Virus genome (UHGV): UHGV-0278151
Direction: 5' to 3' (one strand)
Length of the DNA: 20,723 bases
From: a virus
Shown: positions 16,003 through 19,305 of the stretch, piece after piece
How the letters are laid out: each line of letters begins with the position of its first letter
Position numbering within the stretch: the first letter of the stretch is position 1
Made by a program: the position numbers and the translations under genes
The notes under the pieces: generated by a model
Databases searched by the model: none
Seen by the model: the letters and a program-made list of their open reading frames with translations, nothing else
Told to the model about the DNA's origin: nothing

Positions 16003-16155
16003 TTATTCAGATTTACGCAGTAAAGGCCGGAGCACGACCAGCGCCATCGCCACCAGCACACCATCTGCCAGCACCGACATCAGCCGTCCGGTGAAATCCA
16101 CCACCACTACCAGAAACAGCAGGATGGCAGCCAGCACAAGGCGCGCACTTTTCAC
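16003..16155 (-). CDS. Small two-helix membrane protein (about 50 aa), translationally coupled to upstream TerB-like gene
   Basis: GTG at 16153-16155 overlaps the TerB-like stop TGA (GTGA). The translation VKSARLVLAAILLFLVVVVDFTGRLMSVLADGVLVAMALVVLRPLLRKSE has two hydrophobic segments and charged ends. It is too short for the ORF track, which listed only ORFs of 60 aa or more. Confidence 0.45.
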   Translation of the reverse strand: MKSARLVLAAILLFLVVVVDFTGRLMSVLADGVLVAMALVVLRPLLRKSE

Positions 16156-16577
16156 AGGTACTGCTCCAGCGGCAACTGCAACGCCTGTGCAATTTTCTTG
16201 AGCTGCACTTCTTCATCAGGACCGATGCCGTCCTGGTCAGCAATATCCAGACACAGACACAGCACGTTAACTGCATCATCAGTACCGGCAACATCAGCCA
16301 GCTGACGAAGGGCTTCGGCATTGGCAGAACGCGGTGACGCTTCATAACGGGCGCGGATATTTGCACTCATTTGTGCAATCTCACCCGAGAACGGCGCAAA
16401 GGCAGGAAGTGCTGCAATGGTTTTCTCCAGCACAGCGATTTCTTTCGCATCACAGGTGCCGTCGGCGAATGCTATGGAATACGCACCCCAGACGGTCGCC
16501 TCCACTGCATCGCGGTTCTCCATCTTCTTCACTTCGGTAATGGCCTTGCGGGTTTTCTTTTTGAAAATACCAAACAT
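16152..16577 (-). CDS. TerB-like (tellurite-resistance TerB / DjlA N-domain family) protein
   Basis: 141 aa, MFGIFKKKTRKAITEVKKMENRDAVEATVWGAYSIAFADGTCDAKEIAVLEKTIAALP...DDAVNVLCLCLDIADQDGIGPDEEVQLKKIAQALQLPLEQYL. It shows the two-fold repeated pattern typical of TerB domains: a hydrophobic helix, an acidic DG motif, then E-rich and LxxIAxxL segments. Shine-Dalgarno AAGGA lies upstream of the ATG. Confidence 0.55.
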   Translation of the reverse strand: MFGIFKKKTRKAITEVKKMENRDAVEATVWGAYSIAFADGTCDAKEIAVLEKTIAALPAFAPFSGEIAQMSANIRARYEASPRSANAEALRQLADVAGTDDAVNVLCLCLDIADQDGIGPDEEVQLKKIAQALQLPLEQYL

Positions 16578-16835
16578 CGTGACTTTTCCTTTTAGTGGGT
16601 GAGCCTGCGCCCGGGGGTGACCAGCCCACAGAGAAAGTCACACTGACCATCCCGTAAGCTCACCCCTGAAAGGCTCTGTGGTTTTTGATGTGCGCCGGGC
16701 GTGGCGCAAAGAAATGAAATAAGACTTACCTGAAATTAAGGTTAATCTGAGGATTTAAACCATTTTTAAAGCTTAGTAATATCAACTCGTCTCCTGAAGG
16801 AGACAGATACTTATGATTCTTCATGGACTTTGTCC

Positions 16836-16867
16836 CGCGGCGTTAATCCGACGGCCGCGCTTTTTTT
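16836..16867 (+). terminator. Intrinsic terminator (plus strand)
   Basis: 6-bp GC stem (CGCGGC at 16836-16841 paired with GCCGCG at 16854-16859) followed by C and TTTTTTT (16861-16867). Confidence 0.55.
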
Positions 16868-16902
16868 GCGCCATATTCATCGCTAACTTACATGGCATTG
16901 CC

Positions 16903-16937
16903 ACACGGGCATTATCAGTGTCCGTGTTTCTTTTTTT
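16903..16937 (+). terminator. Second intrinsic terminator (plus strand)
   Basis: ACACGGGC...GTCCGTGT hairpin (16903-16927) followed by TTCTTTTTTT. Confidence 0.5.
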
Positions 16938-16958
16938 AGGATTCAGAATAAAAAAAAC

Positions 16959-16985
16959 CGCCCGGTGGAGGCGGTAAAGGATGTA
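16959..16985 (-). terminator. Intrinsic terminator (minus strand)
   Basis: ACCGCC-CGGTGGA-GGCGGT hairpin followed on the minus strand by a run of 8 T (plus-strand A-run at 16959-16967). Confidence 0.6.
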
Positions 16986-17242
16986 TTTCCAGGTTTTGCT
17001 TAATATATGAATAATCTCAATGTCATGGTGTTATTTACAACACCAGAATGATGCATCACCGACCCTGCCAGGAAATATAAAATCTCCGCCGAAAATGCAC
17101 CATTCTGCTGCCGTAAAAAAATCAGCACTGCGGCTACACCCGACCCCAAATCATAGCCAGAGAACAGAATGTTTTTAACAATCTACCCCCACGTAATAAA
17201 AAAATACGTCAGTGCCGTCACTATAAGGCGTATTTCAAATGT

Positions 17243-17312
<70 letters not shown>

Positions 17313-17446
17313 TGACGGTTTTATTGCCACATCCGTAACAACAGTCGACAGGAATAATATACATTCAGAATCAGCCGCCTTAGCTAATTGTGCAACCATC
17401 TGCTCTTTGCAAGTGCACTTAACGTCCTGCGCCACTTTTCAGGCAT

Positions 17447-17469
17447 AAAAAAACCCGCTCAGTGGCGGG
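17447..17469 (-). terminator. Strong intrinsic terminator (minus strand)
   Basis: CCCGC-CACTGA-GCGGG hairpin followed by TTTTTTT on the minus strand. It is near-identical to the element at 18171-18195. Confidence 0.7.
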
Positions 17470-17600
17470 ATCTTTTGATAAAAACGACAAAGGCACCATT
17501 AAGGTGCCTTTTACACAGGGGCAGCAGGCTTGTCATCACCTCATCGCTACTCCTGGCTTCCTGTTCGGAAGTCTCACAAGTCCCATCAGGGTACAGCGAC

Positions 17601-17629
17601 AGTATCAGCCAACACACTATGTGTGTCAA
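17601..17629 (-). promoter_or_regulatory. Sigma70-type promoter (TTGACA-17 bp-GATACT) with a 15-bp dyad in the spacer
   Basis: The minus strand reads aTTGACAcacatagtgtgttggctGATACT. The -35 is consensus at 17624-17629, the spacer is 17 bp, and the -10 (17601-17606) matches 4 of 6. The spacer contains the palindrome ACACACATAGTGTGT. Confidence 0.55.
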
Positions 17630-17640
17630 TATAAATTCAT

Positions 17641-17673
17641 ATCGAATTCGATAATCGTTTTCGATTATCGATA
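17641..17673. repeat. Tandem dyad-symmetric sites ATCG-N4-CGAT (x2) plus TATCGATA
   Basis: ATCGAATTCGAT (17641-17652, perfect 12-bp palindrome), ATCGTTTTCGAT (17654-17665) and TATCGATA (17666-17673). They overlap the stop codon of the PemK/MazF-like gene and lie 12 bp upstream of the -35 at 17624-17629. Confidence 0.7.
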
Positions 17674-18066
17674 CAGATAAGCCATCCCTATCCCGTGCAA
17701 TACCGCCCGTTTAATATTCTCAAACTCATCTTCCGCAATCATAGGAACAATATAATTTCGTCCCTCCCAGGTTCTGGTTTTTATGCGATCCAGTCGGCTC
17801 AATGAAACCGTCATCAACATGTCACATTTTACCCAGCAAGTAATATGCTCATTACCAGGTATGGGGTTTTCTGATAACTCATGATGGCAATCTCTGCGAG
17901 GGAGCGGTTCAGTAGTGCTTATTGGTACCACTGTTACCAATTGATTGTTGTGCCTGTTTCTGGACACGACCACCACTGGCCTGACCTTGACTATTTCCGG
18001 AACAACCATTCCCCGAAAATCACACATTAAAACAGAACGAACAGACGGCTGATACTTTAATACCAT
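17665..18066 (-). CDS. PemK/MazF-family-like protein (candidate endoribonuclease toxin), no adjacent antitoxin ORF evident
   Basis: From ATG at 18064-18066 the translation is MVLKYQPSVRSVLMCDFRGMVVPEIVKVRPVVVVSRNRHNNQLVTVVPISTTEPLP...ITCWVKCDMLMTVSLSRL...EDEFENIKRAVLHGIGM. This aligns by motif with Kid/PemK and MazF/EndoA (GDIxxVDF-like strand, VRPxxVV, N..., VxVVPITS, hhxCDQhxTIDxxRL, C-terminal helix). Confidence 0.55.
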   Translation of the reverse strand: MVLKYQPSVRSVLMCDFRGMVVPEIVKVRPVVVVSRNRHNNQLVTVVPISTTEPLPRRDCHHELSENPIPGNEHITCWVKCDMLMTVSLSRLDRIKTRTWEGRNYIVPMIAEDEFENIKRAVLHGIGMAYLYR

Positions 18067-18170: not shown

Positions 18171-18193
18171 AAAAAAACCCGCTCGGCGGCGGG
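18171..18193 (-). terminator. Intrinsic terminator (minus strand) between the 229-aa gene and the PemK/MazF-like gene; nin-region tR-like
   Basis: CCCGC-(CGCCGA)-GCGGG hairpin followed by TTTTTTT on the minus strand. It is a direct near-repeat of the 17447-17471 element (23 of 25 bp identical). Confidence 0.65.
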
Positions 18194-18259
18194 ATTTGCT
18201 TACTTTGCCATCGAGTACAAAATCGGCAAAATATCAGATTTGCACGAAATATATGCCTT

Positions 18260-18949
18260 TTAATCTACTTTTGCAACACTTTGCTTTGAAAATGCCGTCT
18301 TTTGTTCTGAACGTGTTCTCATCACAAACAATAAAGCCTCACTATCCAGCCGGTGGAAAATGTGTTTCATTGCAACCCAGTGACCAGTAAATGTTTTGGA
18401 CCAGTTTTTTGTTGTTACTCCCGCCAGTAATGCCAGTTCCTGATATTCATAAGTTTCACGCCCAGCTAGCTCACTCTTCACATCCTGTGCCGCCAGCCAG
18501 ATTAATTTTTTCAGGCGCTCCCGTGTTTTCTCCGCAATTTTTCTGGTACCAGATTGCGCGTTAAATTCATTCCACGCCCACTGTGTTATCGCAATCTGGT
18601 GTTCCCAGCAAATGCTGCCGCTGTAACACCACAGCAACCAGGCTTTATAGTGTTCTTCAAGAGACAGAACCGCCCGTCGCCATGATGATGTCGAAAACTC
18701 AACCTGACTTACCAGAGGAATTGACGTCCTCTTTGCCAGCGATTGTTTCCCCGGGATTGGTGGATTATCCCGCGTTATCATTTTTCCGGTCACTTCATCG
18801 CGGTACCGGATTTTTTTACGCCTGTAACGCCCTGTATCAAACATGGCATTCTCCTGCCAGGCTTCAAGCTGACCTTTTGTTGCCCCACTCAAATCGGCGG
18901 TGGCAATAATGAGCTGCTCACGAACAAACTGTAAATACTGGTTATTCAT
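18260..18949 (-). CDS. nin-region protein immediately downstream of rusA; candidate late-gene antiterminator Q (assignment positional, family not verified)
   Basis: 229 aa from ATG at 18947-18949, which overlaps the rusA stop (ATGA). It occupies the last position of the early-right/nin block before the late control region. I could not recall a confident sequence match to lambda Q or any other Q family. Confidence 0.4.
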   Translation of the reverse strand: MNNQYLQFVREQLIIATADLSGATKGQLEAWQENAMFDTGRYRRKKIRYRDEVTGKMITRDNPPIPGKQSLAKRTSIPLVSQVEFSTSSWRRAVLSLEEHYKAWLLWCYSGSICWEHQIAITQWAWNEFNAQSGTRKIAEKTRERLKKLIWLAAQDVKSELAGRETYEYQELALLAGVTTKNWSKTFTGHWVAMKHIFHRLDSEALLFVMRTRSEQKTAFSKQSVAKVD

Positions 18950-19305
18950 GCGCACTCCAGCCCTGTGATTTTTATCCCCAACCGACCACCAGGAACGACC
19001 TGACCGCGCACAATATTGATTTCATCAAACTGCTCGTCGTCGATAAGCAGTCCCGCATACGTCAGCGCATCCAGCGGTGCTTTCAGAATATTGTCCAGGT
19101 CACGACGGCGCTTATCCGGCGGCTCTGCAATGATCTTTATCGCCAGCCTTCCGGACAGGTTTAATTTCAGCCGCTGCTGGCGAACAATAAGCGCCACATC
19201 ACGGCGATAACGCTCACCGGCTTTTGATACAAAATATGTGCTGCCACGACGACGCCAGTAGGTGTTCACCGTCGGCGGGTAAGGCAAAACAAACTCTATA
19301 CGCAT
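18946..19305 (-). CDS. rusA: Holliday junction resolvase RusA
   Basis: 119 aa, MRIEFVLPYPPTVNTYWRRRGSTYFVSKAGERYRRDVA...PDKRRRDLDNILKAPLDALTYAGLLIDDEQ.... It has the RusA signature (PPSVN/TY...RRDLDN...DD) and a GAGG Shine-Dalgarno before the ATG at 19303-19305. Confidence 0.85.
   Translation of the reverse strand: MRIEFVLPYPPTVNTYWRRRGSTYFVSKAGERYRRDVALIVRQQRLKLNLSGRLAIKIIAEPPDKRRRDLDNILKAPLDALTYAGLLIDDEQFDEINIVRGQVVPGGRLGIKITGLECA

Follow-up and report, generated by a model that had tools for sequence, protein, structure and literature searches.

A candidate small RNA gene in the late region of an Escherichia coli SE11 lambdoid prophage and its chromosomal relative between yodB and serU

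The annotated genes in the E. coli SE11 stretch that corresponds to our virus sequence (UHGV-0278151) all lie on the minus strand, and a short block upstream of the TerB gene reads like a transcription unit on the plus strand. In this study, we asked what this unit is: a gene for an RNA, a gene for a small protein, a regulator of the genes opposite to it, or a mere set of terminators. The window, by which we mean the whole 20,723-nt stretch that was analysed, had been given a sequence-only reading in which the unit was the only one on the plus strand, a reasonable remark given the strand of the annotated SE11 genes.

Position and predicted anatomy of the plus-strand unit

The late genes of the window all run on the minus strand, with the Q gene at 18260-18955. 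A scan placed a promoter-like site after Q (18276-18248) and a terminator at 18193-18178. The unit has the position of a moron site: it lies 3' of the late promoter, is antisense to the late genes and converges with a minus-strand terminator. The start codon of TerB is at 16577, so the predicted RNA lies about 210 nt upstream of it, and the promoter scan found no minus-strand promoter-like site for TerB in 16578-16950. A truncated tRNA-Gly, uncalled by ARAGORN, is present at 17254-17311, and a broken ORF at 17000-17149.

The features described next are on the plus strand. A promoter-like block was read from the sequence at 16733-16782. It begins with a conserved A/T-rich stretch, AAATTAAGGTTAAT (16733-16746), and contains a -35 hexamer TTTAAA (16754-16759) and a -10 hexamer TAATAT (16777-16782) with a 17-nt spacer, which would act as a weak sigma-70-type promoter with a transcript start near 16789. 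This promoter was not listed by the scan because only 8 of the 12 consensus positions match, one below the threshold of 9/12. At the predicted transcript start, folding gave a 5' stem-loop, GTCTCC-TGAA-GGAGAC (16789-16804), which contains the palindrome CTCCTGAAGGAG (16791-16802). It is followed by a largely unpaired, variable linker, AGAUACUUAUGAUUCUUCAU (16805-16824), a candidate seed region, and by a small hairpin, GGAC-UUU-GUCC (16825-16835), directly 5' of terminator 1.

Terminator 1 occupies 16836-16867 and has a stem of CGCGGCG/GGCCGCG (16836-16842 and 16853-16859), a 10-nt loop, UUAAUCCGAC, and a tail of seven U (T at 16861-16867). In the window copy, the seventh stem pair is a G·G mismatch. 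The terminator scan missed it because its limit on loop length was 8 nt. Scan and folding both revealed a second 3' module at 16868-16937, consisting of a spacer, a small hairpin GGC-AUU-GCC (16894-16902), and terminator 2 with an 11-bp stem (16903-16927) and a U run, UUUCUUUUUUU, extending to 16937. Both terminators have a G+C-rich hairpin followed directly by a U run, the stem of terminator 1 being 6-7 bp long. The promoter-like site and the two tandem terminators lie where the sequence-only reading had placed them.

On the minus strand, scan and folding (z -3.0) identified a convergent intrinsic terminator at 16949-16975, ACCGCC-TCCAC-CGGGCGGT plus eight U, which ends the tRNA-side unit; its stem is conserved and its loop is variable in relatives. 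It is part of the neighbouring unit, yet it always stands alongside the long form of the cassette.

The predicted RNA would be about 79-80 nt long when ended at terminator 1, as most transcripts would be, and about 149-150 nt when read-through carries transcription to terminator 2. The 80-nt RNA (16789-16868) folds at -26.6 kcal/mol (z -3.6), a value reached by none of 200 shuffles; for the 150-nt form, the folding energy is -47 kcal/mol (z -4.2). Folding of the two forms together with the conserved elements gives a signal that exceeds chance.

Conservation and co-variation among related loci

A set of about 100 related loci retains the hexamers of the promoter, the 5' hairpin and both terminators, with compensatory substitutions. 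TTTAAAC followed at 17-nt spacing by TAnTAT, TATGAT or TATACT was found in all 16 sequence clusters, and these hexamers persist where the upstream flank is unrelated; the chromosomal paralog and the diverged second copies have them as well. In a plain MAFFT alignment of 24 distinct sequences, none of 500 shuffles reached the co-variation score. In an alignment of 33 distinct sequences, 96.1% of the cells were paired and 8 pairs had changed on both sides, compared with 42-55% paired in slid controls; both samples consist of a few lineages of closely related sequences, and the larger alignment was fitted to the model. These sequence features, their conservation and their co-variation were observed directly, as was the lack of a conserved reading frame. 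The cassette block also stands out as a sharp island of identity between mosaic flanks.

The 5' part of the RNA is variable. Five of the six pairs of the 5' stem-loop changed on both sides, with 95% of cells paired among the 33 members, giving the variants GTCTCC/GGAGAC, GTCCCC/GGGGGC, GTCTCTC/GAGAGA and GCCT/AGGC; in variant L123 and in the chromosomal copy, alternative hairpins fill this position. The linker falls into four sequence types. A small helix predicted within it, AUGA/UCAU (16813-16824), was rejected, since it is not conserved in relatives (GC in 7, unpaired in 17). Some relatives carry a different 5' part on the same 3' module, and some prophages have two copies with different candidate seeds.

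The 3' module is nearly fixed. One loop base of the GGAC-UUU-GUCC hairpin varies and the rest is invariant in 33 of 33 members, including those fetched by the promoter pattern only; the pairing of this hairpin is predicted, the stem being free of any variation. Terminator 1 has three co-varying stem pairs (CG 22 / UA 11, CG 14 / UA 8 and GC 30 / AU 3), and its 10-nt loop is invariant among phage copies. In the commonest phage variant, terminator 1 has only four U (CTACTTTTC), so in some loci a form other than the 80-nt RNA may predominate.

We built a covariance model, R1, from 24 phage-type variants, comprising the 5' hairpin, the GGAC-UUU-GUCC hairpin and the terminator with its UUAAUC(C/U)GAC loop. 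Window positions 16787-16869 scored 103.6 bits, near the best members, the window copy being one of the training sequences. Members outside the training set also matched, with L123 at 82.9 and 56.7 bits and the second copies of L064 and L114 at 56-59 bits. The second 3' module matched R1 weakly (15.7 bits, E 0.09 in the window; 19.9 bits, E 0.0095 in L011), and this resemblance suggests that it is a degenerate tandem duplicate of the hairpin and terminator 1. Its terminator stem co-varies between CACGGGCA/TGTCCGTG and CACGAGTA/ATGCTCGTG, and the other sequence type of the module reads GGACGTTGTCC plus a stem. One phage type and the chromosomal paralog lack the module.

The relative between yodB and serU

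Of 5426 complete E. coli genomes, 5350 also carry the cassette, from promoter to terminator 1, in the interval between yodB and serU. R1, although built from phage sequences, recovered this chromosomal copy at 53.6 bits (E about 1e-10), and by its sequence the yodB-serU RNA is a true homologue of the prophage cassette. In K-12, it lies at about 2,043,095-2,043,181 on the plus strand. It shares with the prophage RNA the promoter block, the small hairpin, and the terminator stem and loop (one base changed). It differs in its 5' part, which reads AGGCUUUCAAAAAAGCUG.GAAAUUCAACAACUCUUGGAAAUUAU, in having no second terminator module, and in lying outside a prophage next to a tRNA gene that serves as a phage attachment site. 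The copy stands alone, with no late or lysis gene opposite to it. An attachment-site origin of the similarity was rejected, because the homologous segment, about 165 nt long, runs exactly from promoter to terminator; it is further disfavoured by the phage copies sitting in the middle of the late region. The yodB-serU RNA has no annotation in RefSeq NC_000913.3 and no Rfam match, and a literature search by locus and by 16-mer on both strands found no published name for it.

Published tables nevertheless contain this RNA. Term-seq in K-12 mapped an orphan RNA 3' end at 2043181 (+) and printed the terminator-1 sequence (Adams 2021, PMC7815308). This end falls exactly at terminator 1 of the paralog, and the in vivo support belongs to the paralog only. 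In Hfq RIL-seq of K-12, the node "yodB.serU.IGR" appears in 39 and 33 chimeric fragments, always as the second RNA, with one to two interaction partners and a low sRNA score (0.010 and 0.046, against a cut-off of 0.1; Bar 2021, PMC8175672). In Hfq CLASH, a hybrid joins 2043157-2043181 (+) to mreC mRNA (Iosub 2020, PMC7213987). It is thus for the chromosomal paralog only that published data show a 3' end at the terminator, and likewise chimeras recovered on Hfq. A table match implies that ompF is its exponential-phase RIL-seq partner, the interactor's 15 interactions and SIC score of 0.094324 being those of the ompF row in the RIL-seq feature table. Duplex scans of both RNAs against ompF mRNA returned only GC-rich pairings of the terminator stem and no convincing target. 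The K-12 3' end could instead close a long yodB 3' UTR rather than belong to an independent transcript.

Readings of the locus and comparison with known RNAs

Taken together, we consider the unit most likely to be an sRNA gene in an unnamed RNA family with a second copy in almost every E. coli chromosome. Its product is best read as a base-pairing sRNA that associates with Hfq and joins a variable 5' region to a conserved 3' module. That the unit is a self-contained "moron" of the lambdoid prophage, whose RNA is bound by Hfq and pairs in trans, is in our judgement the probable case, by a moderate degree. The gene would sit in the late region, oriented against late transcription. Its RNA would combine a variable 5' stem-loop and linker with an invariant 3' hairpin, a terminator whose 10-nt loop is fixed, and a U tail. 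The 3' module would bind Hfq, and the RNA would pair with host or phage RNAs through the variable linker, possibly also through the conserved terminator loop. By sequence, the prophage RNA carries features of the Hfq type, namely the seven-U tail, where at least six U are expected, and UUUGU in the hairpin just before the terminator stem. For the prophage copy, we infer promoter activity, start site, Hfq dependence, trans action and targets; such a mode of action has been reported or proposed for AgvB/AsxR and PasA/PasC, which occupy the same place.

A small protein is the least probable product, and we give it hardly any weight. It could come from a plus-strand ORF of 54 codons plus stop (16813-16977), which spans both terminators and which we judged not to be a gene, from a 7-aa mini-ORF, MDFVPRR (16823-16846), or from a 32-aa minus-strand ORF, MKNHKYLSPSGDELILLSFKNGLNPQINLNFR, that overlaps the promoter. 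GGAG stands 10 nt before ATG 16813, the minus-strand frame is open in many variants, and PGAP calls hypothetical ORFs here in some genomes. Against this, most relatives have ATT in place of ATG 16813 and the end of the frame differs from one variant type to another, while ATG 16823 is ACG or GCG in L120, L121, L123, L124 and L125. The minus-strand ORF is frameshifted or stopped in u0, u1 and u31, and its differences are mostly non-synonymous. Neither strand has a reading frame that is conserved across the variants; Pfam gave no match for the 54-aa ORF or for a 103-aa ORF called by PGAP, and the annotated ORFs agree in neither strand nor frame between genomes. All three ORFs were rejected on these grounds. 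The sequence-only reading had seen a Shine-Dalgarno-like palindrome with an ATG 10 nt on, and a 55-codon frame with terminator 1 inside it. The palindrome is where it was placed but belongs to the co-varying 5' stem-loop, which locks up the GGAG and leaves no ribosome-binding role, and the frame exists, as 54 codons plus stop, with no coding role. Its preference for an RNA of about 80 nt over a protein agrees with the unconserved start and varying frame ends, with about 150 nt expected on read-through. A type I toxin-antitoxin reading was rejected as well, since the minus-strand ORF is non-hydrophobic and frameshifted in several variants.

The sequence-only reading had proposed a cis-antisense regulator of the TerB module. 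In a broader form, the RNA or its head-on transcription would dampen transcripts that run on the minus strand through 16789-16937 to TerB, the holins and the endolysin, by pairing and RNase III cleavage or by transcriptional interference, and so keep leaky late and lysis expression low in the lysogen. We hold this unlikely as the main function, though it deserves some weight. Late transcripts that start at the promoter after Q would be complementary to the unit over its full length, so Q-antiterminated late transcription that crosses it may be affected in cis. In every phage locus, moreover, the cassette immediately precedes the gene that comes first on the lysis side, and always points against it. 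There are precedents in lambda, where OOP RNA and the paQ antisense RNA overlap the coding sequence of the gene that they control (cII and Q) and act strictly in cis. Like them, the prophage RNA is a short phage RNA that would have its own promoter, runs against the operon and ends at an intrinsic terminator; unlike them, it overlaps untranslated sequence some 210 nt ahead of the next gene, and it has a paralog with no phage partner. A specific tie to TerB is not supported. In the fetched loci, the late-direction neighbour is TerB in 20, a holin of the essD type in 37 and a different putative holin in 28, so TerB adjoins the cassette in only about a quarter of the prophage loci examined (holins 65, TerB 20). 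In addition, the RNA lies upstream of the TerB ribosome-binding site rather than over it, the scan gave no minus-strand promoter-like site in 16578-16950, and the chromosomal paralog keeps promoter, hairpin and terminator loop with no late or lysis gene opposite. The invariant parts are the hairpin and the terminator loop, whereas a pure antisense overlap would track the sense strand throughout.

Two further readings dispense with a working RNA. The block could be a terminator cluster or insulator at a conserved module boundary where the phage tRNA genes meet the lysis cassette, kept to stop unmodified polymerases from both sides and as a recombination joint, with incidental promoter hexamers. 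Three hairpin-plus-U-run terminators facing each other within 140 nt, and the sharp edges of the conserved block amid mosaic flanks, fit this idea. However, the promoter block, 5' hairpin, linker and terminator 1 are conserved as one unit even where terminator 2 is missing and in the chromosome, termination needs neither the invariant loop nor the invariant small hairpin, and the chromosomal RNA was recovered on Hfq in two independent data sets; we therefore rate the insulator as quite unlikely. We assign a similarly low probability to a decaying relic, in which a once-functional sRNA cassette is now neutral and hitch-hikes with the lysis module. The degraded surroundings, with the truncated tRNA-Gly and the broken ORF, and the G·G mismatch in terminator 1 point that way, but the window cassette is intact in every element at 103.6 bits against the family model, and compensatory changes outweigh disruptive ones across the family.

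The favoured reading, a trans-acting prophage sRNA, can be compared with two groups of known RNAs, which the cassette resembles, by sequence analysis, in placement and build and not in sequence. AgvB and AsxR, the "anti-sRNAs" of EHEC lambdoid prophages, are short, Hfq-bound RNAs from a moron site 3' of the late promoter, antisense to the late or toxin transcript and arranged in convergent RNA pairs; their specificity comes from a 5' end that varies, joined to a highly conserved 3' region with an intrinsic terminator (Tree et al. 2014, PMC4104026). The prophage cassette is placed and oriented as they are, is likewise part of a convergent arrangement, and has a similar build, with a conserved 3' and a variable 5' part. 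Its RNA differs in length (about 80 or 150 nt, against 51-60 nt for AgvB/AsxR), in starting with a stem-loop and in having a near-universal chromosomal paralog. A cmscan of 16500-17700 with E up to 10 gave no match to the AgvB/AsxR families RF02702 and RF02703, and Rfam at the gathering threshold returned only the tRNA for the whole window, with nothing at the cassette at either threshold.

PasA and PasC of EPEC lambdoid prophages are Hfq-dependent, intergenic and on the strand opposite the flanking late genes, next to the holin/lysozyme operon and with TerB and RusA genes as typical neighbours. PasA is encoded immediately upstream of the holin gene on the other strand; its major 3' end gives an RNA of 85 nt and its minor one an RNA of 236 nt, and the PasA seed shares bases with the terminator stem. 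Pathogenic lineages carry Pas sRNAs more often than others do (Pearl Mizrahi et al. 2021, PMC8550237; Zhu, Shabalina and Storz 2026 preprint, doi 10.64898/2026.05.13.724894). The prophage RNA resembles PasA in its placement and in its predicted short and long ends at terminators 1 and 2, and its invariant terminator loop is reminiscent of the PasA seed. Zhu et al. assign Pas membership by blastn query coverage above 75% to PasA or PasC of E2348/69. With blastn at word size 7 in both directions, we found only chance matches of 8-14 nt to PasA, PasB, PasC and PasD, and Pas identity was therefore rejected. Unlike the Pas sRNAs, the prophage copies were seen in SE11, a commensal, as well as in isolates from animals, humans and the environment, and a core-genome copy exists. 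PreS/LPR1 of lambda was also rejected as a relative, being an unrelated RNA of the early left operon.

A wider picture is conceivable, and we put it forward tentatively, as well short of probable. In it, the family would be modular, with an invariant 3' handle and interchangeable 5' seeds; the terminator loop UUAAUC(C/U)GAC would itself be a pairing site, copies would move between the chromosomal place beside serU and the lambdoid moron site, and prophages would bring in seed variants of a core Hfq-bound sRNA that compete with this sRNA, extend it or sponge its network.

If the RNA is made and active, it would add a further family to the prophage sRNAs of the lambdoid moron site, one whose carriers are prophages in E. 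coli from commensal, animal, human and environmental sources and not chiefly in pathogens. It would also draw attention to a chromosomal sRNA of the best-studied bacterium that is near-universal yet unannotated, and whose mapped 3' end and Hfq chimeras already stand nameless in published tables. One chromosomal and many phage copies with a shared 3' module and differing 5' parts would then offer a direct test of how phages take up host regulatory RNAs, give them new seeds and spread them. For annotation, the cassette accounts for a conserved "empty" intergenic block with inconsistent calls; the ORFs that PGAP places in this block are assorted hypothetical ones whose strand and frame vary between genomes.

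Genomic setting and build of the plus-strand cassette

The window belongs to a lambdoid prophage of E. coli SE11; its positions 16600-17250 correspond to NC_011415.1 1768077-1768727 with 100% identity. The annotated genes of the SE11 stretch are all on the minus strand. This strand carries antiterminator Q (18260-18955), a PemK/MazF-family toxin gene (17665-18066; Pfam E 5.6e-14) between Q and a tRNA remnant, a TerB-family gene (16152-16577), and the DUF3927 gene, two holin, M15 endolysin and terminase genes. The remnant, truncated and tRNA-Gly(UCC)-like (17254-17311, minus strand), was matched by Rfam at 48.5 bits over model positions 8-63 and was not called by ARAGORN. No feature is annotated in 16578-17664, which puts the plus-strand unit between Q and the lysis genes, in the 'moron' zone.

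In relatives, the remnant site holds intact Gly-Thr (and Arg-Ile) clusters; the window's similarity to them ends inside the remnant, with the PemK/MazF-like gene further toward Q. No antitoxin is annotated for this gene, which is flanked by terminator-like hairpins (17454-17469, 17489-17511 and 18178-18193), two of them reading as terminators on both strands.

The sequence-only reading had described a plus-strand unit with a promoter-like hexamer, a palindrome, a start codon and two terminators. We read the sequence directly and found every one of these features where it had been placed; the observation is real. The -10 hexamer TAATAT (16777-16782) lies exactly 17 nt downstream of a -35 hexamer TTTAAA (16754-16759). 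Next come a 5' hairpin containing the palindrome (16789-16804), an ATG opening an ORF of 54 codons plus stop (16813-16977), and terminator 1, with stem arms at 16836-16842 and 16853-16859, a 10-nt loop and seven T. The consensus scan called terminator 2 (16903-16927, T run to 16937) and a facing minus-strand terminator (16975-16957). It omitted terminator 1 because the loop is longer than its limit, and the promoter because 8 of 12 consensus positions match against a threshold of 9. The RNA 16789-16868 folded at -26.6 kcal/mol (z -3.6) and the RNA 16789-16938 at -47 kcal/mol (z -4.2), with 0 of 200 shuffles as stable in either case.

A conserved hairpin, GCGCC-GGGCGT-GGCGC, stands at 16692-16707, some 45 nt before the -35 hexamer. 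TerB-linked and holin-linked loci share it; it is absent from clusters u45 and u57, whose upstream flank differs, and has a U run on neither strand. A convergent minus-strand unit at 16949-17178 comprises a promoter-like site (17178-17150), a broken 49-aa ORF (17000-17149) and the terminator at 16975-16957. The ORF showed amino-acid-level similarity in relatives (QNGAFSAEILYF..MHHSGVVNN) with differing ends and no Pfam match; it has the look of a gene in decay or of a long non-coding transcript.

Conservation and co-variation of the cassette

Megablast matched the 651-nt region 16600-17250 in 404 of 5426 complete E. coli genomes. In each annotated relative examined, the conserved block was opposed to late transcription and sat between a phage tRNA cluster (Gly-Thr, sometimes plus Arg-Ile) and the first lysis-side gene. 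Two IMG/VR pattern scans and one of GTDB species genomes yielded a family sample of about 100 loci, equal to 58 distinct, related segments of 310 nt that fell into 16 clusters at 95% identity. The cassette edges were sharp against mosaic flanks, starting at AAATTAAGGTTAAT (16733), and the shortest form stopped at the terminator 1 U run. Every cluster carried TTTAAAC and, after a 17-nt spacer, TAnTAT (or TATGAT, TATACT); this held even for loci with an unrelated upstream flank and for strongly diverged second copies.

Some prophages contain two differently seeded copies (L123 6740-6950 and 7670-7816; L064 1962-2050; L114 4466-4554), which share one orientation and are separated by about 0.9-1 kb; in L123 a truncated TerB gene lies between them. 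The second copy differs in its 5' part (CACUUCCCGAACGGGGGG...), its -10 is better (TATACT), and its terminator 1 carries additional compensatory changes (GCGACC/GGUCGC); the small hairpin and terminator loop are identical.

In a plain MAFFT alignment of 24 distinct sequences, two terminator 1 pairs swapped between C-G and U-A (13:11, and 11:7 with 6 unpaired), as did one in the 5' hairpin (13:7); the co-variation score was reached by 0 of 500 column shuffles. A predicted AUGA/UCAU helix was not kept in the relatives of this alignment. The covariance model built from it was then used to align 101 matches, 33 of them distinct. Among these 33, 96.1% of cells were paired and 8 of the 17 pairs changed on both sides, against only 42-55% of cells paired in controls slid by 1-3 columns. 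The 5' part fell into four types among them. Since this alignment leans toward the model and the sequences stem from few lineages, the co-variation offers good but not overwhelming support for the predicted structure.

Terminator 2 also co-varied (CACGGGCA/TGTCCGTG versus CACGAGTA/ATGCTCGTG). Its segment matched the model weakly (E 0.09 in the window, 0.0095 in locus L011), and in the other sequence type it reads GGACGTTGTCC and then a stem, so that terminator 2 appears to be a degraded tandem copy of the 3' module (small hairpin plus terminator 1).

A chromosomal paralog between yodB and serU

Sensitive BLAST matched window positions 16823-16868 at about 90% to a site in 5350 of 5426 complete E. 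coli genomes, the yodB-serU intergenic region. Side-by-side reading extended the homology over about 165 nt, starting with the promoter block and ending with the U run, and the paralog scored 53.6 bits against the covariance model. It lies at NC_000913.3 ~2,043,020-2,043,181 (+) (locus L010 3021-3182; also L007 1385-1548). It has the promoter block, the small hairpin and terminator 1 but lacks terminator 2, and its 5' part is different. The site has no annotation in RefSeq K-12 and no Rfam match.

The published transcriptome evidence bears on this paralog rather than on the prophage copy. An 'orphan' 3' end at 2043181 (+) stands in a Term-seq table that prints the terminator sequence; the entry comes after the 'LB 2.0' header, and the LB 0.4 list does not contain it (Adams et al. 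2021, PMC7815308). In the feature table for the Melamed 2016 Hfq RIL-seq data, 'yodB.serU.IGR' takes part in 39 chimeric fragments with a single partner in exponential phase and in 33 with two partners in a second condition (Bar et al. 2021, PMC8175672); judging by where its sheet stands in the file, we take this condition to be stationary phase. Its SIC scores indicate that it is always the second RNA in the chimera, an sRNA trait; its sRNA scores of 0.010 and 0.046 are below the authors' cut-off of 0.1 (Bar et al. 2021, PMC8175672). An Hfq CLASH hybrid joins 2043157-2043181 (+) to mreC mRNA, pairing through the terminator loop and 3' arm (Iosub et al. 2020, PMC7213987). The paralog is near-universal yet unannotated in K-12, although published tables of Term-seq, RIL-seq and CLASH data already contain traces of it. 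For the paralog alone there are two target leads, mreC and ompF, the latter deduced by matching values in the tables; duplex scans against ompF mRNA found no convincing complementarity.

Chromosomal-type sequence also occurred on a 6-kb 'Bacillota' MAG contig (L018 1530-1547), with a 310-nt segment identical to Shigella flexneri L016, and on several IMG/VR 'viral' contigs including L029. These cases probably reflect mis-binning, or prophage calls extending into the serU flank.

Proposed function and alternatives

The cassette resembles AgvB/AsxR (Tree et al., PMC4104026) and PasA/PasC in placement, orientation and build, but matched neither the AgvB/AsxR Rfam models nor the Pas sequences. The EPEC RNAs PasA and PasC are encoded directly upstream of the holin operon and on the strand opposite to it, with TerB and RusA genes as frequent neighbors, and PasA has a major short and a minor long end (PMC8550237; doi 10.64898/2026.05.13.724894). 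Literature searches by yodB/serU sRNA terms and by sequence found no published name for the cassette RNA, which is most likely a new, unnamed addition to the known class of prophage moron-site sRNAs. We moderately favor an independently transcribed, Hfq-associated sRNA acting in trans, in which the 3' module would bind the chaperone and the variable 5' linker would pair with targets, perhaps jointly with the conserved terminator loop.

The sequence-only reading had preferred an RNA to a protein, rightly: start codons and frames vary, and Pfam was blank for the 54-aa ORF and for PGAP-called ORFs at the same place in other genomes. PGAP does call ORFs at the cassette, with strand and frame differing between genomes. 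We rejected the 54-codon ORF (most variants read ATT in place of ATG 16813, and the stop position differs per type), a mini-ORF (ATG 16823 is ACG or GCG in five loci fetched via the promoter pattern) and a 32-codon minus-strand frame over the promoter (frameshift or stop in several variants). A small protein is accordingly very improbable. A terminator or insulator junction without RNA function is rather improbable; terminator 2 is missing in one phage type and in the chromosomal copy, while the GGAC-UUU-GUCC hairpin and the terminator loop UUAAUC(C/U)GAC were invariant in 33 of 33 distinct members. We would also give little credence to a decaying relic.

Cis-antisense action or transcriptional interference on late transcripts appears unlikely, if somewhat less so. 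The cassette RNA is necessarily complementary to Q-modified late transcripts starting just after Q, so a general cis effect is possible. The narrower proposal of a TerB-specific antisense regulator is not supported. Counting the late-direction neighbor of each copy among the loci retrieved, we found an essD-type holin in 37 loci, another putative holin in 28, TerB in 20 and a chromosomal site or other neighbor in 16, with 13 further copies too near a contig end to classify. The RNA lies upstream of the TerB start at a distance of about 210 nt, and the consensus scan found no minus-strand promoter-like site between them. On the minus strand, a promoter-like site (TTGCAA, 17 nt, TATATT; 18248-18276) overlaps the end of the Q gene, and a strong terminator (18178-18193) follows about 55 nt later, the layout expected of a late promoter and Q-dependent terminator. 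In lambda and Stx phages, the short late-promoter transcript is itself an sRNA.
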